This document shows, in pieces, positions 69-33,479 of a stretch of DNA of 33,479 bases. The position numbers and the translations under genes are program-made. The notes below the pieces were generated by a model. That model was not told the DNA's origin, did no database searches, and saw only the letters and a list, made by a program, of their open reading frames with translations. Source of the DNA: an uncultured Bifidobacterium sp. (GTDB lineage Bacteria; Actinomycetota; Thermoleophilia; Gaiellales; F1-60-MAGs149); the NCBI GenBank assembly GCA_964588635.1, contig CAZPQP010000002.1, positions 1 to 33,479 on the forward strand, in the 5' to 3' direction. The first letter of the stretch is position 1, and every line of letters begins with the position of its first letter.

Positions 69-2165
69 GTGACCGCCGTGGCGCCGAAGCTCTCGCGCCT
101 CGGGCGCGCCGCGCTTATCTATGCGGCCGAGCACGGGTGGAGGGTGTTCCCGTTGCACTCGATCGTCGACGGGCGGTGCTCGTGCGGCGCCGAGACGTGC
201 ACCGGGACCAAGCCCGGCAAGCACCCGCGCACGACGCGCGGCTGCCTCGACGCCACGACCGATCTGTCGCAGATCAGGATCTGGTGGTCGCAGTGGCCTG
301 ACGCCAACGTCGGGATCGCCACGGGCGCAGGCCTGATCGTGATCGACATCGACCCTCGCCACGGCGGCGACGACGGTTTCGACGATCTCAAGACACGCCT
401 TGGCCCGTTGCCCGAGACCGTCGAGGCGCTCACGGGGTCCGGCGGGCGGCACGTCTATCTCTCGGTCCCCGAGGGCGTCACCGTGCGCAACAGCGCGTCG
501 CAGCTGGCGCCCGGCGTCGACGTGCGAGGCGAGGGAGGCTACGTGGTCGCGGCGCCGAGCACGCACGTCTCGGGACGCGGTTATGGCTGGGAGCTGTCGT
601 CGCGACCGGGAGAGGTCGACGTCGCACCGGCGCCGCAAGCCTGGCTCGACGCACTGACCCGCAAGCCCAAGCTCCGGGTCCTCGCCGGCGGCGCGGGCGG
701 CGACATCGTCGAAGGATCGCGCAACGAAACCCTGTTCAAGCGCGGCTGCAGCATGCGCGCGGCTGGGTTCGACGAGCCTGCCATCACGGCTGCGCTGCTC
801 TCCGAAAACGATTCGCGCTGCAACCCCCCGCTCGACCCCGCCGAGGTCAAGAGCATCGCAGCGTCGGCCGCGCGCTATCAGCCCGGCCTGTCGCCCGAAT
901 ATGCGGCCAAGCAGCGCAAGCCCGTGGCGCTCCCCGAGGCTCCAGCCGAGGAGGCCACGCCCGTCGTCGAGGACGATGGAGAGTGGATGCAGCGGCTGGC
1001 GCAGACCAAGGACGGCAAGCTTCGCGCGACTTTCGCCAACGTCTGCGCGGTGCTCCGTCACGATGCTCGCTATCGCACGCTGGCGCAGAACGCGATGACC
1101 CGCGCGCCCGAGCTCGACGGCCAGCGGGTCACCGACGCTCGCCTCGCCCGCATTCGCGAGGAGATCGAGATCGAATACGCGTTCACGCCGAGCGCCGATC
1201 AGGTCGCCAGCGCGGTGCTGCTCGTCGGCACCGAGCGGGAGCGTCACCCGGTGCGCGAATACCTCCGGTCCCTCACCTGGGACGGGGTCGAGCGCCTCGA
1301 TCACGTCGCCTCGACGATCCTCGGCGCCGAGCCGACACCGATCAATCAGGTCATGCTTCGAAGCTGGTTCGTCTCGGCCGTCGCGCGGGCGATCGAGCCC
1401 GGGTGCAAGGTCGACACGTCGCTGGTGCTCGTCGGCGGGCAAGGCGCCGGGAAGTCGAGTTTCTTTCGCGTGCTCGGCGGGCAGTGGTTTAGCGACAGCG
1501 GCGTCGATATCGAGTCCAAAGACGCCATGCTCCAGATCAACTCGGCATGGATCTACGAGTTGGGGGAGCTCGATCATGTGACATCGCGGGCGCACGCAGG
1601 GCGCATCAAAGCGTTCATCACGTCGCAGCGGGACTCGTTCCGCCCGCCTTATGGGCGGGTCATTGAAACGGTGCCCCGGCACAACGTGATCGTCGGCAGC
1701 ACAAACGAGACGCAATTTCTACAGGATTCAACGGGTGACCGACGATTCTGGGTTGTGCGCGTCGGGCAGATCGACCTCGACGCGCTGCACCGAGACCGGG
1801 ATCAGCTCTGGGCCGAGGCACTGGCGGCGCACCAGCGACGCGAGGGATGGTGGTTGGAACAGGCGGCCGAGACCGCACGCACCGAGGCGACCGAAGAGCA
1901 CCGGGTGGCCGACGTCTGGGAGGACGCCGTGGCGGCGTGGATCGCCACGCTCCCGGCGCACGAGTCGCGCGATATCACCACGCAGCGCGTCCTGCAGGCC
2001 GCCTGCCGCGTCGAACTGGAGCGCTGCGACCACCGGGCCTCGGCCCGCGTCGGGGCGATCCTGCGGCGCCTCGGGTGGACGCAGCGCGTCGTGCGCGTCG
2101 ACGGACGAAACACCCGCGTATGGGACGTGCAGGAGCCCGACGGGGCGTGGCGGCACCGCCCGTGA
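69..2165 (+). CDS. Bifunctional primase-polymerase / P-loop helicase-like replication protein: N-terminal prim-pol domain, PriCT-like middle region, VirE/D5-type NTPase C-terminal region.
   Basis: 698-aa ORF with a GTG start. The N-terminus (FPLHS...CSCG...GKHP...GIATG..LIVIDID...GGYVVAPPS-like) resembles bifunctional prim-pol proteins. SRNETLFKRGCSMRAAGF resembles the primase C-terminal domain. Walker A is VGGQGAGKSSF, followed by DSTGDRRFW as in the VirE/D5 family. Confidence 0.85.
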   Translation: MTAVAPKLSRLGRAALIYAAEHGWRVFPLHSIVDGRCSCGAETCTGTKPGKHPRTTRGCLDATTDLSQIRIWWSQWPDANVGIATGAGLIVIDIDPRHGGDDGFDDLKTRLGPLPETVEALTGSGGRHVYLSVPEGVTVRNSASQLAPGVDVRGEGGYVVAAPSTHVSGRGYGWELSSRPGEVDVAPAPQAWLDALTRKPKLRVLAGGAGGDIVEGSRNETLFKRGCSMRAAGFDEPAITAALLSENDSRCNPPLDPAEVKSIAASAARYQPGLSPEYAAKQRKPVALPEAPAEEATPVVEDDGEWMQRLAQTKDGKLRATFANVCAVLRHDARYRTLAQNAMTRAPELDGQRVTDARLARIREEIEIEYAFTPSADQVASAVLLVGTERERHPVREYLRSLTWDGVERLDHVASTILGAEPTPINQVMLRSWFVSAVARAIEPGCKVDTSLVLVGGQGAGKSSFFRVLGGQWFSDSGVDIESKDAMLQINSAWIYELGELDHVTSRAHAGRIKAFITSQRDSFRPPYGRVIETVPRHNVIVGSTNETQFLQDSTGDRRFWVVRVGQIDLDALHRDRDQLWAEALAAHQRREGWWLEQAAETARTEATEEHRVADVWEDAVAAWIATLPAHESRDITTQRVLQAACRVELERCDHRASARVGAILRRLGWTQRVVRVDGRNTRVWDVQEPDGAWRHRP

Positions 2166-2364
2166 TGCTACGCGCTACGGACGCTACGGGTGCTTCGGGC
2201 AGTTCCCATAACGGCATAGGAGCGGTAGCTACCTATATATATATAATCTATCTATCTATAAGAGGTATTACTTGTAGCAGCGTAGCACTCGGTAAACGTA
2301 GCGGTTTCGCACGTAGCACGGACGTAGCAGAGACCCGTAGCAGCGTAGCGGCGGGGGCGTAGCG
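2166..2364. promoter_or_regulatory. Iteron array plus AT-rich island. Candidate replication origin and/or operator array.
   Basis: GCTACG at 2167, 2174 and 2183. Palindrome GGTAGCTACC at 2224-2233. (TA)6 and (ATCT)3 tract at 2234-2270, including TATAAT at 2242-2247. (C/T)GTAGC at 2273, 2281, 2297, 2312, 2323, 2336, 2344 and 2358. Confidence 0.6.
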
Positions 2365-2592
2365 GTGCCCTACACCACCGCTCGGACCTCTCCCGGCGCC
2401 CGAGCCGTGCGCTGCCTGCGGATCCTCGAGGCGTGCGGCTCGGCGGGCGCCACCGTGGCCGAGCTGGCCCTCGCGTGCGGGGTCGCACCCGAGACGATCC
2501 GGGTCGACCTCGCTGCGATCCGGGCGGCCGACGAGCCCCTCGAGGCCGACGGACCGCTCCGATCTCGCGAGACGCGCGTGCGGCTGCTATAG
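2365..2592 (+). CDS. Small winged-helix (HTH_11/DeoR-N-like) DNA-binding protein.
   Basis: 75-aa ORF with a GTG start directly after the last iteron. LRILEACGSAGATVAELALACGVAPETIRVDLAAI fits the HTH_11 pattern. Confidence 0.5.
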   Translation: MPYTTARTSPGARAVRCLRILEACGSAGATVAELALACGVAPETIRVDLAAIRAADEPLEADGPLRSRETRVRLL

Positions 2593-2599
2593 TCGGCAC

Positions 2600-2809
2600 G
2601 TGCTCCGACTCCGATGCACCAACGACCATCCAGACGAGCCCGATCTGCATATCGCGATCGACGTGCGCCTCCCTGCGCCCCCCGGCCTCGTCGGATCGCT
2701 TCCGCTGCGGTGTTTGTGCGGCGCGATGCTGGTCGCCCCACTGTCGAGTGCCTGGTCGATCTGGGATCCGGTCCCGCGCGACGCCGATGGGCGAGAAGTC
2801 GAGGACTGA
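2600..2809 (+). CDS. Hypothetical small protein.
   Basis: 69-aa ORF with a GTG start. Its composition is more protein-like than the overlapping frame. It ends 1 nt before the GTG of the next gene. Confidence 0.4.
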   Translation: MLRLRCTNDHPDEPDLHIAIDVRLPAPPGLVGSLPLRCLCGAMLVAPLSSAWSIWDPVPRDADGREVED

Positions 2810-2810
2810 C

Positions 2811-3221
2811 GTGCCCCGCGGAGTGCCGCTGACGCCCGAGCAGCTGGCCGAGGCGACGAGGGTCTACCTCGAGACGGGCAACTACTCCGAGGCCGCGCGA
2901 GCGATCGGCAGCGACCGGAGCAACGTGCGACGGCAGCTGCGCGCAGCCGAGGAGCCACAAAGGGCCGCACTCCACGCGTGCGCGCTCGCGCGAGCAGAGC
3001 GGGACGCCCGACGCGCACTGGTCAAAGCCCGCCGCAAGCTGGTCGAGGCCCTCGACGGCGCCGCCGACGAGAAGGCTCTCGCGACCGTCGCTGCGCAGAT
3101 CCACGACAACGCTCGCGCCACGACGCAGATGCGCGTCGCGCACGCGAAGCTGACGGGGGCGCACGCGCCTGACCGGATCGAAGGGCCCGCGATCACGGTG
3201 CTGCTGCCCGAGGAAAAGTGA
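2811..3221 (+). CDS. terS: Terminase small subunit (HTH-containing).
   Basis: GAGGA at 2800-2804 followed by GTG at 2811; an alternative in-frame ATG lies at 2787. The N-terminal HTH is YLETGNYSEAARAIGSDRSNVRRQL, followed by a helical C-terminus. The stop overlaps the terL start (GTGA). Confidence 0.6.
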   Translation: MPRGVPLTPEQLAEATRVYLETGNYSEAARAIGSDRSNVRRQLRAAEEPQRAALHACALARAERDARRALVKARRKLVEALDGAADEKALATVAAQIHDNARATTQMRVAHAKLTGAHAPDRIEGPAITVLLPEEK

Positions 3222-4543
3222 CGGCCCGCGCCGCTGATCAGTGGCGCCCGACTGCGGCGCAGCGCGCGGCGCTAGGCTGCGGGGCGTTTGAGGTGCTTTA
3301 CGGCGGCGCCGCGGGTGGCGGTAAAAGCGACTATCTGCTGGCCGCACCCCTGCGCTGGGCACACCACAAAGCGTTCCGCGCACTGCTGTTGCGAAGGTCG
3401 TTCCCAGAGCTAGAGCGCACGCTGATCGCTCGATCTCGCATCCTCTACGGAGCGCTCGGCGCCAGCTATCATGAGCAGCGCCACGAATGGACGTTCCGTA
3501 GCGGCGCTCGGATCGCCTTCGGTTATCTGGAGCGCGCGGCCGATGCGCTTAGGTATCAGGGCGCAGAGTTCGCGTTCGTGGGGTTCGACGAGCTGACGCA
3601 CTTCGACGAGCAGAGCTATCGCTATCTTTCGTCGCGCGTTCGATCTGCCGACGGGCTCCCCCTGCGGATCCGTGCGACCACGAATCCCGGGGGACCGGGC
3701 CACGATTGGGTGCGCGCGCGCTGGGGTGCGTGGATTGGCCCGTCACCGACAGCAGGGCCCGGCGAGCGATTGTGGTTTGACCCCGAGGGGCGCCAGGTCG
3801 AGGGCCCGCGCGAGCACGCGCTAGAGCGCGCATTCTTCCCGGCGCGTCTAGAGGACAATCCTTATCTCGGCGCCGAATACCGGGCGCAGCTGCTGGCCCT
3901 CGACCCCGTCACCCGAGCGCAGCTACTCGACGGCGATTGGGATGCGTGCGTTGGCGAGGGCAGGCTATTCCACCGAACTTGGTGGACGATCCTCGACGCT
4001 CCGCCGACCGTCTCTCGGCGCGTGCGCGCATGGGACCTCGGCGCCGGTGGCGATGCCACCGAAGGCGTGCTGCTGGGCGACGCGGGTGCCTCGGCCACGC
4101 CTCGGTGGATCGTGCTCGACGCGATCACGCACCGAGGACCGCCCCACGAGGTGCACGCGCTAATCCGCGCGACAGCAGACGCCGACGGCCGTGACTGCGT
4201 CGTCGTGATCCCGCAGGACCCCGGGCAGGCTGGCGTGGATCAGGTGCACTCGCTCACCAGAGAGCTAGCGGGGTTCACCGTACGGCCTCGGCGCCCGAGC
4301 GCTTCGAAGGTCGTGCGCGCAGGCCCGTGGTCGGCACAGGTCGGTGCGCGCAACGCCGCGCTGGTGCGAGGCCCGTGGGTGGCGGGCTTTGTGGCGCAAC
4401 ACCACGCGTTTCCCGACGGCGCGCACGACGATAAGGTCGACGCCGCGGCCGATGCCTTCGCAGAACTGGTCTCGGCGCCGAAAGCGCTTGACTACGGTCG
4501 CGCGGCGGCTGGGGCCCGTGGTATCCTCCGCCCGTCGTGGTAG
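3218..4543 (+). CDS. terL: Terminase large subunit.
   Basis: 441 aa. Walker A-like GGAAGGGKSDYLL and Walker B-like FVGFDELTHF. The C-terminal nuclease-like region has acidic motifs (AWDLG, PQDPGQAG, HDDKVDA). Confidence 0.9.
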   Translation: MTARAADQWRPTAAQRAALGCGAFEVLYGGAAGGGKSDYLLAAPLRWAHHKAFRALLLRRSFPELERTLIARSRILYGALGASYHEQRHEWTFRSGARIAFGYLERAADALRYQGAEFAFVGFDELTHFDEQSYRYLSSRVRSADGLPLRIRATTNPGGPGHDWVRARWGAWIGPSPTAGPGERLWFDPEGRQVEGPREHALERAFFPARLEDNPYLGAEYRAQLLALDPVTRAQLLDGDWDACVGEGRLFHRTWWTILDAPPTVSRRVRAWDLGAGGDATEGVLLGDAGASATPRWIVLDAITHRGPPHEVHALIRATADADGRDCVVVIPQDPGQAGVDQVHSLTRELAGFTVRPRRPSASKVVRAGPWSAQVGARNAALVRGPWVAGFVAQHHAFPDGAHDDKVDAAADAFAELVSAPKALDYGRAAAGARGILRPSW

Positions 4544-19028: not shown

Positions 19029-19729
19029 GCACTTATCTCGCCTGGCAGCCGACGCTGCAGCCCGCTGGCCTGCGCGGGCAGTGGGGCGAGCGCTGGGGCG
19101 CGGTGCTCGGCGCCGAAAAGGATATCCTCGTCGGCCTCGCGAAAGACGCCGTCACCGCGCGCTTCCTGCCGACCGCACCGAGCGATGCGCTTAGTCTGCT
19201 CGGCGCAGAGCGCCAGATCGGACGCGAGTCTCCCGACACCGAGGCTACCTATCGCGCTCGTCTCGCTGGCGCATGGGAGTCGTGGTCGTGGGTGGGCACG
19301 CGATACGGCATCGCGCTCGGCGTCGGCCTGCTCGGCGAGGGATATCCGGCCGTGATTGCCTATCGGGAACTCCCCTGGGATTCGGCTTCCGACCGCTGGG
19401 CACGCATGCGAATCCTGTTCACGGGCTTCGCGGGGTGGACGGGCGAGCCCTTTGGCGGCTTGTGGTCGTGGGGATCGCGCCTTGAGCAGCCGATCGAATT
19501 TGAGACGCCCGCGACGATTCGACCCGTGCTGCGTCGAGTCCTGCGGCAATGGATCAATGCGCGCGATCGGGTCTTCTCGGTCACCATCGCGCGAGGCGAA
19601 GCGGTCTGGGGCCTTTTCTCGTGGGGCTCCAGCACGTGGGCCGTGAAACCCGTCGATGAATGGTCAGCGCCCCTCTTCGGAGAGGCCGACACGATCTGGG
19701 GCGCCGTCGCTTTCGGCGTCTTCTGCTGA
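19025..19729 (+). CDS. Baseplate/tail protein I-like (P2 gpI family).
   Basis: GTG at 19025 overlaps the J stop. LSLLGAERQIGRESPDTEATYRARL resembles the tail protein I motif. Confidence 0.6.
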   Translation: MSTYLAWQPTLQPAGLRGQWGERWGAVLGAEKDILVGLAKDAVTARFLPTAPSDALSLLGAERQIGRESPDTEATYRARLAGAWESWSWVGTRYGIALGVGLLGEGYPAVIAYRELPWDSASDRWARMRILFTGFAGWTGEPFGGLWSWGSRLEQPIEFETPATIRPVLRRVLRQWINARDRVFSVTIARGEAVWGLFSWGSSTWAVKPVDEWSAPLFGEADTIWGAVAFGVFC

Positions 19730-19744
19730 TAAGAGAGAGGACAC

Positions 19745-20659
19745 ATGACCGCGACGATCACACCGACTGCGAAGCACACGGGCGCGAACATTACGCGCCC
19801 TGTCGATGGCGAGGGCGCCTATATGGACGGCGGCACGGCGCCGCTTGCGCCGATCCTGCAGACGCTCGCTGACCGTGCGCAATACGCTCGCGGGAGCACC
19901 TGGGGGACGCTGATCGGAGGCGATGAATTCAGCATCGATAGCGGCGGCACGAGCACCGTGTTCACAGCGCGTGTCAACGCATTCGAAGCGATCACGATTC
20001 GCGACAGCAGCGGCGTCTTCTGGCCGATCTACACGTCGGCGGACACGACGTGGTCGCTGGCCGATGTCGAGGGCTCGCCCGCGAACCTGTCGAACTCTAC
20101 GTGGTATTATTGCTATCTCGGCGTCACCACGGCTGGCGTGTTGACCAAGCAGATCAGCACGACGGCGCCGGGAGCGTCGCGCAAGTGGAAGAGCACGGCG
20201 GTCGACCAGCAGCGATATATCGGCTGCTTTCGGGCAAACGGCTCTGGCGCGCCGATTCCGGTGCGCGCAGTGCGCGGTCGATATCTCTATCGCTTCTCGG
20301 CAGCGGGGGGCCACGGGACTGCAGCGGCGTCTTATCTGACGACGCAGGCCTTCACGGACCTTGATCTCAGCGCATATCTCCCGCCGCACGCGCGAATCGT
20401 GCACATGCACTATCAGCTGATCAACGAAGACACGACGAGCGGTGACGAGGTTGCCAGTGCGATTCGCACCAATGGCGAGACGACGTCGTCGATCACCGTG
20501 CAAGTGCCGCACGCTCAGGCTGCTGGGCTCGATAACGCGTCGCGAGAGCATCTGTTTTTCGAGATCGAGACTGACTCTTCGCAGCGCGTCGAGGTCGAGG
20601 TTACGGGCTCCTCGACGAGCTTTCTGGTCAACCTCTTCGTCCGCGGCTTTTCGGAGTGA
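19745..20659 (+). CDS. Tail fibre / baseplate-attached fibre protein.
   Basis: 304 aa, the first gene after the baseplate. Thr/Ser/Gly-rich and beta-rich. Position-based call. Confidence 0.45.
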   Translation: MTATITPTAKHTGANITRPVDGEGAYMDGGTAPLAPILQTLADRAQYARGSTWGTLIGGDEFSIDSGGTSTVFTARVNAFEAITIRDSSGVFWPIYTSADTTWSLADVEGSPANLSNSTWYYCYLGVTTAGVLTKQISTTAPGASRKWKSTAVDQQRYIGCFRANGSGAPIPVRAVRGRYLYRFSAAGGHGTAAASYLTTQAFTDLDLSAYLPPHARIVHMHYQLINEDTTSGDEVASAIRTNGETTSSITVQVPHAQAAGLDNASREHLFFEIETDSSQRVEVEVTGSSTSFLVNLFVRGFSE

Positions 20660-20661
20660 CC

Positions 20662-20994
20662 ATGGCGACGATCCCGACTTTTGAAGCTCTCCGGTCAAGC
20701 TCCGTCACTGCCCTCGCGGCGGGTGTCGCGACCGATGTGGATATCGCCACAGGCGGCGCTAAGGCGCTGACCGTGTCGATCCTCAACAGCGGTGCAAACC
20801 CCATCACAGCGCTGAGCGTCGCGACGATCCCGGTGACGCTCGCTGGCAACGCCCGCGCGATCACGACGGGCATCCCGCTGGCGGCTGCCGGGCGTCTCAC
20901 GATCACGATCGTCGACGAGCCCTGCACGACGCTCAGGCTGACGCTGACCAGCGCGGTGGGGTCGAGCGCCACGATCGAAGCGGTGGGCCAGTGA
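20662..20994 (+). CDS. Hypothetical beta-rich protein in the fibre module.
   Basis: 110 aa, with GGAG 5 nt upstream of the ATG. Ala/Thr/Ile-rich. Ends in IEAVGQ. Confidence 0.45.
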   Translation: MATIPTFEALRSSSVTALAAGVATDVDIATGGAKALTVSILNSGANPITALSVATIPVTLAGNARAITTGIPLAAAGRLTITIVDEPCTTLRLTLTSAVGSSATIEAVGQ

Positions 20995-21407
20995 CGATCT
21001 TCGTCAACGGCCAGCAGGTCGGTGCCTCGGGGGGCGGCGCCTCGACGAGCGCGATCGACCTGTCGAGCGAAGCGCAGAGCACGACGTCGACCGTCGACGT
21101 GGTGATCGGAGGCCGTTACTTCGCGCCGAGCTCGTGGGAGATCTCAGGCCGCACGACGACGCTCACCCTCGAGGCCGTCGGCCAGGTCCTCTCGGGCGTC
21201 ACCGGCACGCTGACGCTGCACAACGCCACGGACGCGTCGACGGCGGCAACGCTGACGTGGACCGAGACTAGCGCCACGCGAAAGACCGCGTCGGTGTCGC
21301 TTCCCGCGGCAGCGAAGATCTACGAGCTGCGCATCAAAAAAAGCGGCGGCGGCGCATCGGATTATGCGCTCGTCTATGGCGTCAACCTTCTAGTCTCGTG
21401 GAGCTGA
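20991..21407 (+). CDS. Hypothetical beta-rich protein in the fibre module.
   Basis: 138 aa with a GTGA overlap to the upstream gene. Contains LEAVGQ, echoing the C-terminus of the preceding protein. Confidence 0.45.
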   Translation: MTIFVNGQQVGASGGGASTSAIDLSSEAQSTTSTVDVVIGGRYFAPSSWEISGRTTTLTLEAVGQVLSGVTGTLTLHNATDASTAATLTWTETSATRKTASVSLPAAAKIYELRIKKSGGGASDYALVYGVNLLVSWS

Positions 21408-21411
21408 TCCA

Positions 21412-22392
21412 ATGGCAGTCGTCGCAAGCGTCTCGTCTCCCGCCAACGGCACCGTCGCAGTCAACGCGCTGCTCACGGCGCTCGTCGCCAACGGCTATAT
21501 CGTCAAGCGATGGTCCGATGCGACCACGCTGTCTGCCGACAACGTCAATCTGACTAGCAACCCGTATGTCGGCAACGTCGGCAATGGCAACAACCCCTCC
21601 GGCTCTGGAGCCAACAGTCTCGGCAACTCCAACGCGTGGTTCCGCGTCGCCGCTAGTGACGGATCGCGCGAGTGGCTCTTCCAACGCGGCGCTGCCGATC
21701 AGACGTGGACGATCTCCCGCAGCAACAGCGCTTTCACGGGCGGCACTCCGAACGCCACGACGGCGGGCACGTCGACGGCAGCAAGCGCGCTTTTCAGCGC
21801 GGCGCAGGCGTTTCCGAGCACTGGCACGTGGCGGCAGTTTATCTCTGTAGAGAACGCCGCGCCCTACGGTTTCACGGTCTTCGGCATCACGCTCGGTGGT
21901 GGCAACGTCCTGCAATTCCTCGTCGACGAGCCGCTTGCCTCGGGGACTACCGACACCTCGGACACCGATCCGTATATCTGGTGGGGCTACTACAACGCCA
22001 CGGGGCTCGCGGGTGCGACGGGCGGGATTAACGCTCTGATCAGCTCAAACATCTTCAAACGCTTCACGGGCGCTGGCTCAAACCAAACGCCAAGCCTCCC
22101 CGGATACAACACCACGGCCAACGGCACGATGGCCCCGGCGCAGACCAGCTCAATCTCTCAAATGGGATTGACGCCAAACACCTTGCGCGAGGTGATCCTG
22201 CCGATCTTCGCGTGTCGTCCCGGCGCATCGAGCAGCACCACGGGATGGATCGGCACCTGCAATCGCCTTCGCTGGGGCACTGTCGGCGGACGCGCGAATG
22301 GGCAGACGCTCGGCCCCGTGAGCGGGTCTTATTGGATCTTTATGGCGGGCGCGTGGGTGCCGTGGGACTCGACTGAGCCCGCGCTCTCGTGA
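21412..22392 (+). CDS. Putative receptor-binding / distal fibre protein.
   Basis: 326 aa, rich in Asn, Gly, Ser, Thr and Trp. Local base composition is visibly less GC-rich than the flanking regions. It is the last gene before the lysis cassette. Confidence 0.4.
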   Translation: MAVVASVSSPANGTVAVNALLTALVANGYIVKRWSDATTLSADNVNLTSNPYVGNVGNGNNPSGSGANSLGNSNAWFRVAASDGSREWLFQRGAADQTWTISRSNSAFTGGTPNATTAGTSTAASALFSAAQAFPSTGTWRQFISVENAAPYGFTVFGITLGGGNVLQFLVDEPLASGTTDTSDTDPYIWWGYYNATGLAGATGGINALISSNIFKRFTGAGSNQTPSLPGYNTTANGTMAPAQTSSISQMGLTPNTLREVILPIFACRPGASSSTTGWIGTCNRLRWGTVGGRANGQTLGPVSGSYWIFMAGAWVPWDSTEPALS

Positions 22393-22400
22393 GGTGACCT

Positions 22401-22589
22401 GTGGCGACTTATCAAGGACAAGTCCCGACAGAGCAGCCTTTTCGCGCACTCCGTGACTCGCTCCGCGCGAGCGTTGTCGTCGGCGTCGTGATCTATTTTT
22501 TTCGCCGCACCGATGGCACACGCGGCTCAACCGCTGACCTCACGGCAATCCCAGCGGGGGCCGTTATCGAGAGACAGGTGACCTCGTGA
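22401..22589 (+). CDS. Hypothetical small protein with a short hydrophobic segment.
   Basis: 62 aa, with GAGG 5 nt before the GTG and the stop overlapping the next start (GTGA). Codon usage is atypical. Confidence 0.4.
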   Translation: MATYQGQVPTEQPFRALRDSLRASVVVGVVIYFFRRTDGTRGSTADLTAIPAGAVIERQVTS

Positions 22590-22894
22590 GCGGCGCAAGC
22601 ATCGTCGGTGTTGTCGTCGGATTGATCGGCGCGTGCGGGTCAATCGCAGCGGTGCTGGTCTCTCTCGGTCGCATCCTCGCCGGGCTCGACAGCCTGCGCG
22701 AAGAGTCGCGCGAGCGTGGCAAAACGCACGATGCGAAGATCGAGGCGCTTCGCACGGACGTGTCGTCAATCACCACAACGGTGACTGTCGACAAGGGTCG
22801 CATCGACGCTCTCAACACAGAGGTCGTCAATCTGCGAAAGACCTCGCACGAACACGGCAATCACATCCAAGTCCTTCTCGCGAAGGTGTCGTGA
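22586..22894 (+). CDS. Membrane-anchored coiled-coil protein (holin or i-spanin-like).
   Basis: 102 aa. The N-terminal TM segment is ASIVGVVVGLIGACGSIAAVLVSLG, followed by a heptad-like helical region. Confidence 0.5.
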   Translation: MSGASIVGVVVGLIGACGSIAAVLVSLGRILAGLDSLREESRERGKTHDAKIEALRTDVSSITTTVTVDKGRIDALNTEVVNLRKTSHEHGNHIQVLLAKVS

Positions 22895-23178
22895 TGCGCG
22901 ATCTTTTGAGAGACCTCTCGCCTGTGCTCTGGCCTGTCGCCAGCGCGATCCTCGTGCTGCTGCTGCGTGCGCGCACCCCGGAGGCGTGGGTGGCCCTCGG
23001 GGAGCGCAGCCCTCGGGTGCAGGGCGCGATCCGTCTGCTCCGCGCCCTCGGCGTGGACCCGGTCAAGGCCGTCGCCGCCGTCGTGCAGATCGTGTCGGGG
23101 CGTGCGCCCGCGCGCGCCGTCGCGGTTGCCGATGCGGTGCGCGAGACTCTGGCGCCGCCGCCTCCGGAGGCTCGGTGA
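22894..23178 (+). CDS. Small membrane protein (holin/antiholin candidate).
   Basis: ATG at 22894 overlaps the upstream TGA. 94 aa. TM segment VLWPVASAILVLLL. Confidence 0.45.
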   Translation: MRDLLRDLSPVLWPVASAILVLLLRARTPEAWVALGERSPRVQGAIRLLRALGVDPVKAVAAVVQIVSGRAPARAVAVADAVRETLAPPPPEAR

Positions 23179-29830: not shown

Positions 29831-31122
29831 TCCTGCGGGACTACCAGCTCCGCGCGATCGACCTCGTGCGCGCGGCTTATCGGCGCGGGCGCAAGGCCGT
29901 CCTGCTGGTCTTGCCGACCGGCGCTGGGAAAACTGCCACAGCGAGTCAACTGATCGCGTGGGCCGTCGCGAGAGGGCGTCGCTGCCTGTTCTTGGTCCAC
30001 AGGCGCGAGATTGTCTTGGACACGCACCGACGATTGCTGGCGGCCGGCGTGCCCTGCGGCGTCGTGATGGCCGACGAAGTGCGCGTCGACGCGCCCGTGC
30101 AGGTCTGCTCGGTGCAGACGCTCGTCGCGAGGCAGCAGCATCCGGCGGCTGACCTCCTGTTTTGGGACGAGGCCCACCATTGCGCCGCAGAGACGTATCG
30201 CGAGATCCGCGCGCAATATCCGGCTGCCTGGCACCTTGGGCTGACGGCGACGCCCGAGCGCTCGGACGGCGCGCCGCTGGGAGACGCTTTCGAGCAGTTA
30301 ATCGCGCCGATCAGCGTGGCCGAGCTCGTCGCGGCTGGACACCTCGCACCGATCGACGTGATCGCGCCCGCAGGGCGCCTGCAGAGCGCGATCGGAGCGT
30401 CGCCCGCCGAGGCGTGGCTGCAGCACGGAGGCGGGCGCCCGGCGGTGATCTTCACGTCGACGATCGCGGAGTCGCGCGAAGCCGTTGCTGCTCTCGGCGA
30501 GCGCGCGGCGCACATTGACGGCTCGACACCGAAGGCGCAGCGCGACGAGATTCTGCGGCGTTTCGAGGCCGGGGAGCTCGACGTGGTGTCGAACTGCGCG
30601 GTGCTCACCGAGGGCTGGGACAGCGCGCGCGCCGAGGTATGCGTGCTCGCGAGAGGCTGCGGCAGCCTGCCCGTCTATCTGCAGACGATCGGCAGGGTGC
30701 GCAGGACCGGCGGCCGCACCGACAAGCGCTGTCTTTTGCTCGACCTCGCTGGCGCGGCGCACGAGCACGGCCTGCCCGACGAGGATCGTCAGTGGGAGCT
30801 CTCGCGCGGGCAGAGGGAGGTCAAGCCGAAGAGCGATCGAGAGTCGCTGTCGACGTGCGACCGCTGCGGGGCCGTCTTCGAATACGTGCGGCGCGGGCCC
30901 GTGTGCCGTCGCTGCGGCGCGCCGTGGCCACCGCCAGAGCGCGTGGCGATCCTCAGGCAGGAGCTCCGCGCAGTGCTTCCGACCTCGACGCCGTCGCAGC
31001 GCGACGCCGAGCTGCGGCGCCTCGAGCAGATCGCGCGACAGAAGGGCTATAAGCCCGGGTGGGTCGGCGTGAGGTTCAAAGAGCGGTTTGGTTTCTGGCC
31101 GAAGACACGGAGGGCGTCGTGA
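29827..31122 (+). CDS. SF2 DEAD/DEAH-box helicase with a C-terminal zinc ribbon.
   Basis: 431 aa. Motif I is LPTGAGKT, motif II WDEAHH, motif III LTATP, motif VI QTIGRVRR. The zinc ribbon is CDRCG...CRRCG. The C-terminal GYKPGWVGVRFKERFGFWP is common in phage helicases. Confidence 0.85.
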   Translation: MILRDYQLRAIDLVRAAYRRGRKAVLLVLPTGAGKTATASQLIAWAVARGRRCLFLVHRREIVLDTHRRLLAAGVPCGVVMADEVRVDAPVQVCSVQTLVARQQHPAADLLFWDEAHHCAAETYREIRAQYPAAWHLGLTATPERSDGAPLGDAFEQLIAPISVAELVAAGHLAPIDVIAPAGRLQSAIGASPAEAWLQHGGGRPAVIFTSTIAESREAVAALGERAAHIDGSTPKAQRDEILRRFEAGELDVVSNCAVLTEGWDSARAEVCVLARGCGSLPVYLQTIGRVRRTGGRTDKRCLLLDLAGAAHEHGLPDEDRQWELSRGQREVKPKSDRESLSTCDRCGAVFEYVRRGPVCRRCGAPWPPPERVAILRQELRAVLPTSTPSQRDAELRRLEQIARQKGYKPGWVGVRFKERFGFWPKTRRAS

Positions 31123-32567
31123 CACCAGCAGACGTGATCGAGGGCAAGGCGCGATGGTGCGTCGTCGAGGGCGATGCGCTTGACGTCGTCCGCGCCCTCC
31201 CTGCGGCGTGTATCGACGCGCTTGTGACGGACCCGCCCTCGGGCATCGCGTTCATGGGCGCGGAGTGGGACCGCGACAAAGGCGGGCGCGCGCAGTGGGT
31301 CGCGTGGCTCGCGGAGGTGCTCGGGCACGCTCGCGCCGCGACGCGCGACGGCGGTCGCGCGCTGGTGTGGTCGCTTCCGCGGACGTCGCACTGGACGGGC
31401 TGCGCCGTCGAGGATGCGGGGTGGTCGATCGAAAACACGGTGACGCACCTTTTCGGCACCGGCTGGCCCAAGGGAGCGTCGCAGTTGAAGCCCGCCGCAG
31501 AGACGTGGTGGATCGCGCGCAACGGGCGCAGCACGGCGTTGAACATCGACGCGTGCAGGGTGGGCGTGAGCAATCGCGTGCCGGGGTCGTTGTCGACGGC
31601 GCAGGGCTACAGCCTTCTCAGTCGCGAAACCGGCGCCGAGGACGGCCACAACCCCAACGTCGGCCGCTATCCGCCCAACGTCGTGTTCTCCCACGCGCCG
31701 GGGTGCGTCTGCGTCGGAGAGCGGCGGGTGCAGACGGCGTGGAGCGCCAACGGCACTCGCAAGGCCCCACTCGGATACGGCAGCGGATCCTCGGACGGAT
31801 CTGCCTGCGTCAAGCATTGCGACCCCGACGGCACCGAGACCGTCGAGGCGTGGGAGTGCGTCGAGGGGTGCCCCGTGCGCGAACTCGACGCGCAGAGCCG
31901 GGAGCTCACCAGCGGCGGCAAGCGCGGCCGGGAGGTTCGGGTCGACGCGATGCCCTCCGGCTGGACGGGGACCGTCATGCGGGAGCACGAGACCCTCGGC
32001 GACCGCGGCACCGCCTCGCGCTTCTTCCCCTGCTTCCCAGCCGACGAGGGCGCGCTGTTCGGGTACCACGCGAAGCCGAGCCGCGCGGAGCGGGACGCCG
32101 GGGTAAGCCTCGACGCCGTGCCGCGCGAGACGCCCAGCGGCAACAACCGCACTCGCTACTGCGCCGCCTGCGGCCTGACTGACAACGGCACAAACGACCA
32201 CTCTCAGTGTGGCGACCGCATCGTCAACGCGATAGCGGGGCCGCAGGCCAACAACCACCCGACGGTCAAGAGCATTGCGCTCATGCGGTGGTTGGTCCGC
32301 CTTGTGACGCGCCCCGGAGACGTCGTGCTCGACCCATTCGGCGGCTCCGGCACCACGGGCGTCGCGGCTCTCGCGGAGGGCCGTCGCGTCATCCTCGTCG
32401 AGCGTGATGCGCGCTTCGCGGAGATCGCCCGTCAACGGCTCACGCACGCTACGCCTGACCTCACCGCGCCCGTGCGAGTCCGCGCCCGTGCGGCGACGCC
32501 TGCGCCCGCCGCGGACCCGCGTCAGCGCAGCCTCTTCGATCTGCTCGCGGAGGGCAATCAATCATGA
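31119..32567 (+). CDS. DNA methyltransferase (beta-class N4/N6 type), with an atypical motif IV and a Cys-rich central region.
   Basis: 482 aa. Motif IV is TDPPSG, motif I LDPFGGSGTTGVAA, and NHPTVKS corresponds to the HPTxKP motif. The motif order IV...I indicates the beta class. Confidence 0.8.
   Translation: MTPADVIEGKARWCVVEGDALDVVRALPAACIDALVTDPPSGIAFMGAEWDRDKGGRAQWVAWLAEVLGHARAATRDGGRALVWSLPRTSHWTGCAVEDAGWSIENTVTHLFGTGWPKGASQLKPAAETWWIARNGRSTALNIDACRVGVSNRVPGSLSTAQGYSLLSRETGAEDGHNPNVGRYPPNVVFSHAPGCVCVGERRVQTAWSANGTRKAPLGYGSGSSDGSACVKHCDPDGTETVEAWECVEGCPVRELDAQSRELTSGGKRGREVRVDAMPSGWTGTVMREHETLGDRGTASRFFPCFPADEGALFGYHAKPSRAERDAGVSLDAVPRETPSGNNRTRYCAACGLTDNGTNDHSQCGDRIVNAIAGPQANNHPTVKSIALMRWLVRLVTRPGDVVLDPFGGSGTTGVAALAEGRRVILVERDARFAEIARQRLTHATPDLTAPVRVRARAATPAPAADPRQRSLFDLLAEGNQS
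32458..32567 (+). repeat. 110-bp direct repeat, copy 1 (3' end of the methyltransferase gene).
   Basis: Identical base for base to 33370-33479. The flanks diverge at 32457 versus 33369 and at 32568 versus the base following 33479 (base 56 after circular wrap). Confidence 0.95.
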
Positions 32568-33239: not shown

Positions 33240-33479
33240 ATGGGAGCACCACGAAAGCAGCCTCTTCTGATCCGCCTGTCTGACAATGACAAGGCGTTTC
33301 TCCAACGCCTCGCCGACGCGCACTCTGTCTCGCTGGCCGCCGCGCTGCGGATGATCCTGCGCGGGCAGAACCTCACCGCGCCCGTGCGAGTCCGCGCCCG
33401 TGCGGCGACGCCTGCGCCCGCCGCGGACCCGCGTCAGCGCAGCCTCTTCGATCTGCTCGCGGAGGGCAATCAATCATGA
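33240..33479 (+). CDS. Ribbon-helix-helix (CopG/MobC-like) DNA-binding protein carrying the duplicated 35-aa tail.
   Basis: 79 aa. KQPLLIRLSDNDKAFLQRLADAHSVSLAAALRMILRG follows the RHH pattern. The C-terminal sequence LTAPVRVRARAATPAPAADPRQRSLFDLLAEGNQS is identical to the methyltransferase C-terminus. Confidence 0.65.
   Translation: MGAPRKQPLLIRLSDNDKAFLQRLADAHSVSLAAALRMILRGQNLTAPVRVRARAATPAPAADPRQRSLFDLLAEGNQS
33370..33479 (+). repeat. 110-bp direct repeat, copy 2 (3' end of the RHH gene). Its last 55 bp equal bases 1-55.
   Basis: Base-for-base identity with 32458-32567, at an offset of 912 bp. Confidence 0.95.

Follow-up and report, generated by a model that had tools for sequence, protein, structure and literature searches.

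We posit that the interval 2166-2364 of the DNA analysed here is very probably the replication origin of a phage genome that assembles as a circle of about 33.4 kb, and that it is of the Rep-ori type known from the Staphylococcus aureus pathogenicity islands (SaPIs) and the phage-inducible chromosomal islands (PICIs). The window, i.e., the whole stretch of DNA that was analysed, comprises positions 1 to 33,479 of contig CAZPQP010000002.1, which is deposited as part of the assembly of an uncultured Bifidobacterium sp. (GCA_964588635.1). Its ends overlap by 55 nt (1-55 being identical to 33425-33479), pointing to a circle of about 33,424 bp. The original prediction, made from the letters of the sequence without database searches, had proposed a candidate origin at this place. 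It is supported by inference from three directions: the homology of the product of the preceding gene to the SaPI1 replication protein Rep1, the conserved placement of the array of short repeats (iterons) in about 30 related loci, and the co-variation of these iterons with the winged helix predicted in the same gene product.

The interval consists of copies of the pentamer GTAGC set in opposed orientations around an A/T-rich core (Table 1), and re-reading of the sequence with exact counting reproduced the coordinates that had been given for all the repeats and for the A/T-rich island. The enrichment that had been claimed is borne out: GTAGC or its complement GCTAC occurs 13 times in these 199 bp versus 16 times in the remaining 33,280 bp. 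The count expected in the array is 0.39 from the base composition, in agreement with the earlier estimate of well under one, and 0.096 if the density of copies outside the array is used (Poisson P = 8e-24). This is by a wide margin the most enriched 5-mer cluster in the window, in which there is no second GTAGC/GCTAC cluster, the 16 other copies being scattered. The copies are split unevenly around the core, four to nine (3+1 versus 1+8), with three copies and half of the palindrome GGTAGCTACC in minus orientation on the left and, besides its other half, eight copies in plus orientation on the right; the right set includes two doublets of GTAGCAGCGTAGC with 8-bp spacing, at 2274 and 2337. The array had been said to start 2 nt after the stop of the preceding gene and to end at the start codon of the next; the second statement holds exactly, the last iteron (2358-2364) abutting the GTG at 2365, and the first holds in substance, the first iteron lying 1-2 nt past the stop codon at 2163-2165.

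The A/T-rich island is likewise as conspicuous as had been stated, with A or T at 31 of the 37 positions from 2234 to 2270, and nowhere else in the window, the genome being of 70% GC, do 37 bp include 26 or more A/T. Among the 40-bp duplexes of the genome this one is also the least stable, with a nearest-neighbour free energy of -37.4 kcal/mol against a genome mean for 40-bp windows of -64.9 +/- 3.7 kcal/mol and a value of -51.5 kcal/mol for the next weakest.

The gene that ends immediately before the array encodes a protein of 698 amino acids, the putative initiator, in which a Prim-Pol domain (residues 16-190; Pfam PF09250, E = 4e-46) and a PriCT_1 domain (211-272) lie in the same polypeptide as a VapE/SF3-type helicase (399-612; Pfam VapE-like_dom, E = 8e-79) and a predicted C-terminal winged helix (about 618-688); a Rep_3 domain was not found in it by Pfam. 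The closest solved structure by sequence is 7PDS, whose chain A is matched by residues 374-564 in a phmmer search (E = 7e-35). A full-length AlphaFold2 model (predicted local distance difference test, pLDDT, of 91) compared with 7PDS by Foldseek gave E = 1e-24, with about 447 of the 451 target columns aligned and a template modelling score of 0.66 on the target; the portions that match this chain throughout its length are the helicase and the C-terminal part. The predicted winged helix, with local pLDDT above 90, comprises helices at 618-627, 638-645 and 655-667 and a hairpin of strands at 670-677 and 680-688. In this model the helix 655-667 would be the recognition helix and the segment 670-688 the wing, with residue 681 (N681) at its tip.

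7PDS is the structure of SaPI1 Rep1 with DNA, and the SaPI Rep proteins recognise penta- or hexanucleotide iterons via their C-terminal winged-helix domain (PMC9371898). In the SaPI origin, 6-12 iterons follow rep immediately on its 3' side and surround an AT-rich centre, with two or more per side and the two sides opposed; the Rep protein loads itself without the need for a loader, and in SaPI5 the pri and rep genes are fused so as to encode one polypeptide (PMC9371898). PICIs of Escherichia coli, such as EcCICFT073, share this layout, and pri-rep-ori function has been tested there on a plasmid (PMC6092414). Replicons of this type, to which that of SaPIbov1 also belongs, are further characterised by specific binding of Rep to its own iterons, by melting of the origin that needs no ATP, and by autonomous replication of the pri-rep-ori cassette; on binding and melting, the co-variation of iteron base 4 with wing residue 681 across independent lineages bears indirectly here. 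Every structural feature of the SaPI/PICI Rep-ori type that can be tested in silico is present here: a homologous helicase with a C-terminal winged helix, here a predicted one, a primase fused to the helicase as in SaPI5, and an array of pentanucleotide repeats that lies immediately 3' of the rep open reading frame (ORF), has an AT-rich centre and opposed sides, and varies in iteron specificity between elements. The differences lie in the carrier, here a tailed phage complete with its own genes for head, tail and terminase, whereas SaPIs are satellite islands; in the GC content of 70%; and in the 13 uneven copies, which are slightly above the 6-12 of SaPIs. PriRep5 of SaPI5 (7OLA), moreover, resembles the present protein far less (Foldseek E = 5e-5).

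Relatives of the primase-helicase, which has more than 2000 homologues, and of the terminase were collected from viral contigs, and from metagenome assemblies via exact protein look-ups, and their loci are designated here by L numbers. The layout is kept, directly after the helicase gene, in about 30 of these loci. In each full-length relative examined (L001-L011, L061-L076, L082 and L084-L091) an array with a core lies right past the helicase stop, in a non-coding gap of about 200-550 bp that holds a repeat set, an A/T-rich or otherwise unusual core and an opposed second set. In the more distant L078, L080 and L081 (35-41% identity) a stop interrupts the match past the primase part, and the part with the helicase and the winged helix is a separate ORF, which is again followed by an array, of GGT[A/G]TGGCA; the split may be a real one of the gene or a frameshift. 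The layout also extends to cultured phages that encode a related helicase of the VapE type with a winged helix: Marinobacter phage PS3 (MF959999.1; L093, 2122-2400) has opposed GGGGTGACC repeats right past the stop, and Pseudomonas phage LPPA36 (OR188719.1; L092, 2500-2690) has opposed CTGTCCCAC repeats about 370 nt downstream, past one small ORF. The records of these two phages annotate no feature over the arrays.

The origins of the closest relatives align by column with the present one, through three left and six of the eight right iterons. Two blocks inside the origin are not iterons, at 2234-2272 and 2304-2309 (columns about 85-125 and 160-170 of alignment A3). The first contains the (CT)n-TATAAGAG block of the core, which is conserved among the closest relatives and might serve as a promoter, for priming or for the binding of a host factor; the second is a GTTTCG block between the second and third aligned right iterons, present in most of the closest relatives. 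The palindrome GGTAGCTACC occurs only in this genome, and a (CG)n run in the relatives takes the place of both (TA)6 and the palindrome, the alternatives alike being alternating purine-pyrimidine tracts.

The company that the array keeps bears on what it might be bound by. The genes downstream of it differ from locus to locus and only the window and L010 have a terminase close by, while the array stays with the helicase; hence, we take the array to belong with the helicase gene rather than with small regulatory or packaging genes. The original prediction had named as its alternative an operator array, bound only by the 75-residue winged helix-turn-helix (wHTH) protein encoded at 2365-2592. In the form considered here, this protein would bind the GTAGC repeats and control its own gene and the downstream packaging and late genes, with a promoter in the core. 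In favour of such an operator, the array ends at the wHTH start codon and sits where the replication module gives way to the packaging module, and the AT-rich core holds the hexamers TATAAT and TATAAG. However, a consensus scan of 1900-3300 gave no promoter of the sigma-70 type, nor a terminator near the array, and tblastn matched the wHTH protein in none of the related loci, not even in L001-L004 and L010, where the GTAGC array is kept. As the gene is thus not conserved with the array, which in turn always abuts the helicase gene and has iterons co-varying with the winged helix of the helicase, an operator and its proposed binder are quite unlikely.

A second possibility that arises from the neighbourhood is a packaging site of the pac or cos type bound by the small terminase subunit, comparable to the hexamer repeats of the P1 pac site. 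The array lies about 350-550 bp upstream of a candidate gene for this subunit (terS) and about 850 bp upstream of the gene for the large subunit (terL), and the circular assembly is compatible with headful packaging. The relatives, however, keep the array with the helicase, and in L001-L004 terL is usually not within 6 kb of it; conversely, the candidate terS is conserved with terL and not with the array. Of the fifteen loci anchored on terL (L012-L026), none has a primase upstream or an A/T-containing repeat cluster of a comparable kind, which is a weak test given that several of them span only about 0.5-1.2 kb upstream of terL. The result on repeat clusters comes from a generic scan of all loci for 6-mer clusters, which was swamped by GC-rich hexamers and was informative only for the loci with terL alone. 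Since the synteny with the terminase is not conserved, we regard a packaging site as very unlikely.

The evidence that points to the helicase itself as the binder comes from the variation of the iterons. At least eight iteron types occur in the same layout, namely GTAGC, GTAAC, GTAAG, GTGATG, GGAGCAG, GAGAGACC, GGTCC and GGT(A/G)TGGCA. All nine aligned iterons of L085 read GTAAC, against GTAGC in L004, with the (CT)n-TATAAG scaffold unchanged; judged from the aligned sequences, the difference is a concerted change of every iteron copy. In an alignment of 20 primase-helicase proteins, GTAGC loci and GTAAC loci are told apart by a single column, residue 681. For the test of this residue, eight further proteins were chosen by the sequence of the wing and their loci were then fetched, the iteron having been predicted beforehand for four of them; all four predictions, GTAGC for L084 and L089 and GTAAC for L085 and L086, proved correct (Table 2). 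Asn at 681 goes with iterons in ..AGC in 11 of 11 loci, and Cys, Pro, Val, Leu, Ile or Thr goes with GTAA(C/G) in all loci with such residues. Three sister contrasts agree with this relationship: L004 versus L085, L084 versus L007 and L086, and L068 and L089 versus L074. The loci compared are related to one another and further winged-helix positions differ within the sister pairs. Thus, the comparison provides strong circumstantial support for the proposal that the winged helix of the helicase reads the repeats, and it falls short of residue 681 alone deciding.

Table 2. Iterons in the loci of eight primase-helicase proteins chosen by wing sequence
Locus	Wing	Predicted iteron	Iteron found
L084	DGRN (L007-like backbone)	GTAGC	GGTGTAGC
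L089	DGRN	GTAGC	CGTAGCG
L085	AGRC (L004-like)	GTAAC	GTAAC
L086	GGHP	GTAAC	GTAAC (mostly)
L087	NGQN		GTAGC
L088	AGHN		GTAGC
L091	KGQN		GGAGC
L090	DGRS		GTAAC

Several observations weigh against the array being an origin read by the winged helix, or against the simplest form of this proposal. A fold search with the isolated C-terminal model recovered mostly winged-helix proteins, all of them at non-significant scores (E > 0.06), and the origin-binding domain of the alpha protein of satellite phage P4 was not among the 50 matches listed. Ser at 681 is ambiguous, being found with GTAGC in L004 and with GTAAC in L090, which leaves a one-residue rule incomplete, and L004 and L085 differ at other winged-helix positions too, 664 and 684 among them, so that S681C is not isolated as the cause of the iteron change. 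The cumulative GC skew, for which an inflection had been suggested as a check, shows none at 2.2 kb and has its extremes near 12.5 kb and 32 kb; we judge this test uninformative because nearly all genes lie on one strand. The genome has a gene for a RecT-like protein, through which recombination-dependent replication could contribute. Finally, the array extends as far as the start codon of the gene that follows, and a second role in transcription is possible. As for the wing, a broader rule in which either Asn or Ser at 681 would go with GTAGC was rejected because L090 combines Ser with GTAAC; the Asn half alone survives.

Even if the helicase binds the array, this could be a cis element at which replication does not start, the true origin being elsewhere: it might serve copy control by handcuffing, act as an enhancer comparable to crr of P4, or mediate autoregulation or termination of the primase-helicase gene. 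The same co-variation with the winged helix would apply to such an element, and P4 indeed has a second iteron site besides its ori. Set against this, the genome has no iteron cluster besides this array and no strongly unstable duplex besides its core; moreover, the same layout has been described as the origin in the homologous SaPI/PICI systems (PMC9371898), and for an E. coli PICI pri-rep-ori function has been tested on a plasmid (PMC6092414). We accordingly hold a role short of initiation to be unlikely, and an origin of the SaPI/PICI type to be the best account of the interval.

By analogy with those systems, the 698-residue primase-helicase would bind the GTAGC pentamers via its C-terminal winged helix, and the opposed left and right sets would place two helicase rings so that they face each other across the 39-bp core at 2234-2272. 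The rings would then open up the core and self-load, with no additional loader protein, the fused Prim-Pol domain would make the first primers, and the host replisome would take over. Binding, melting, the double-hexamer geometry, priming and firing of the origin are all projected in this manner from the better-studied relatives.

Other replicons resemble the proposed one in part. In the core origin of SV40, opposed pentanucleotide repeats by an AT tract direct the assembly of two hexamers of the SF3 helicase large T antigen; the likeness is by analogy only and confined to the opposed pentanucleotides and the AT tract, the DNA-binding domain of large T being of another fold, an origin-binding domain in place of a winged helix, with no primase domain in the protein and no detectable sequence relationship. 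Classical iteron plasmids, with initiators such as RepA, pi and TrfA, have direct repeats of about 17-22 bp, and these initiators, which are of the Rep_3 type with tandem winged helices, recruit the host DnaB. The repeated sites beside an AT-rich unwinding element and the adjacent initiator gene are shared with these plasmids, whereas here the sites are opposed 5-mers, no Rep_3 domain was found and the initiator would be its own helicase. P4 uses its second iteron site, crr, besides ori, its iterons are octamers, and its alpha protein reportedly binds short repeats at the origin through a winged helix. Like the present protein, whose winged helix is a predicted one, alpha combines a primase, an SF3-type helicase and a C-terminal winged helix in a single polypeptide. 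Its primase, however, is of the Toprim type (PMC4234260), in contrast to the Prim-Pol (archaeo-eukaryotic primase) domain of the present protein, and P4, whose cognate site is referred to in PMC6092414, needs crr, while there is no second cluster here. ORF904 of plasmid pRN1 likewise has a Prim-Pol domain, an SF3 helicase and a C-terminal winged helix, and an essential origin lies directly downstream of its gene (PMC4234260). The protein architecture, the position 3' of the gene and the structure of the Prim-Pol domain (1RNI) are thus similar to what we find, but the origin of pRN1 is formed by a stem-loop of 100 nt and lacks iterons (PMC4234260), in place of the iterons around an AT-rich core seen here. 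P4 and the iteron plasmids had been offered as models in the original prediction; given the Prim-Pol primase and the single cluster, the SaPI/PICI Pri-Rep-ori arrangement is a better fit.

The rest of the genome is that of a tailed phage transcribed almost wholly in one direction. It carries Mu-like portal, protease, scaffold and major head genes and myovirus-like tail and baseplate genes, and also encodes a RecT-like protein, an SNF2-type helicase, a DNA methyltransferase and a VRR-NUC nuclease. A nucleotide search of deposited phages matched only short primase fragments and found no close relative, a cluster look-up of the primase gave neither name nor accession, and the nearest genome matches are small contigs binned to metagenome-assembled genomes of Myxococcota and Planctomycetales. 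Annotation with Pfam and PHROG covered part of the ORFs of the genome, and the genes at 19-30 kb mostly gave no match. The ORFs scanned include no integrase, in keeping with the earlier description of the genome as one without it, and no DNA polymerase. The 75-residue wHTH protein has nothing meaningful among its matches in a sequence search of the PDB. The candidate terS gave no Pfam or PHROG family match, and homologues of the C-terminal 170 residues of its frame lie immediately before terL in L012, L020 and L025 (40-62% identity). Separately, a reading of the transcribed repeats as an RNA element was dropped, as an Rfam scan of 1900-2700 gave one chance microRNA match far below threshold.

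The lack of an integrase among the ORFs scanned would also suit a phage-plasmid, in which the array might be a partition centromere recognised by a small adaptor protein that binds DNA; the short repeats, the AT region between them with its likeness to a promoter, and the small wHTH gene alongside would be in keeping with this. However, the ORFs scanned include no ParA, ParM or ParB-type protein, on which account we consider a centromere most improbable, and the wHTH is not conserved with the array, which co-varies instead with the helicase.

Table 1. Coordinates of the proposed origin, its putative initiator and the neighbouring genes in the window
Feature	Coordinates	Strand	Basis or remark
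Fused primase-helicase, putative initiator, 698 aa	69..2165	+	Pfam/PHROG, phmmer, AlphaFold2, Foldseek
Coding region of predicted C-terminal winged helix: three helices and beta-hairpin wing	1920..2132	+	AlphaFold2 secondary structure, co-variation
Left iteron set, 3 x GCTACG (= CGTAGC on minus strand)	2166..2189; copies at 2167, 2174, 2183	-	Kept in position in L001-L004 and L085
Palindrome GGTAGCTACC	2224..2233	.	One iteron core per orientation; left edge of AT-rich core
AT-rich core, presumed DNA-unwinding element: (TA)6 (2234-2245), then (ATCT)3, TATAAGAGGTATTACTT	2234..2272 (39 bp)	.	Least stable duplex and conserved block
Right iteron set, 8 x (C/T)GTAGC(A/G), direct	2273..2364; copies at 2273, 2281, 2297, 2312, 2323, 2336, 2344, 2358	+	6/8 copies align by column with iterons of relatives
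75-aa winged-helix/HTH gene, neighbour, no conserved part of the module	2365..2592	+	Weak DeoR-type HTH match below Pfam cut-off
Candidate small terminase (terS)	about 2709-3221, within ORF 2433-3221	+	Start codon ambiguous
Terminase large subunit (terL)	3218-4543

Some further features of the genome may be recorded. A perfect direct repeat of 110 nt (32458-32567 = 33370-33479) places a second copy of the 3' end of the methyltransferase gene shortly ahead of the primase gene and brackets the VRR-NUC gene together with about 480 nt of small minus-strand ORFs. The methyltransferase gene (31059-32567) looks inserted, given that the genes for the SNF2 helicase, VRR-NUC and primase are contiguous in the relatives. 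The GC content is lower at 19500-23000 (63-65% versus about 70%), and a patch rich in CAAAC and TCAAA at 22040-22190, inside the ORF 21412-22392, is second only to the origin among the enriched 5-mer clusters.

The kind of origin proposed here is already known; what is new is its presence in complete tailed phages of high GC that belong to an uncharacterised lineage, and only the comparative part, with its many iteron specificities and a candidate specificity residue, goes beyond annotation. A probable origin and its likely binder can thereby be named for an uncultured phage lineage, which is useful for annotation, replicon engineering and work on host range. Going further, we tentatively suggest, as a possibility that we would rate somewhat below even, that self-loading origins of the SaPI type are standard in complete tailed phages of high-GC bacteria that form a large, so far uncharacterised clade, as well as in cultured phages of Marinobacter and Pseudomonas, and/or that the wing-tip residue (Asn681) sets the fourth base of the iteron. 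If this is true, the code at 681, with Asn for ..AGC and Cys, Pro, Val, Leu, Ile or Thr for ..AAC or ..AAG, would amount to a readable and re-programmable specificity between initiator and origin. The roughly 30 loci, with at least eight iteron types and three sister pairs that differ by one iteron base, constitute a natural experiment on the co-evolution of a winged-helix initiator with its site, and they offer a single candidate specificity residue that is open to mutagenesis in tractable SaPI or PICI systems.

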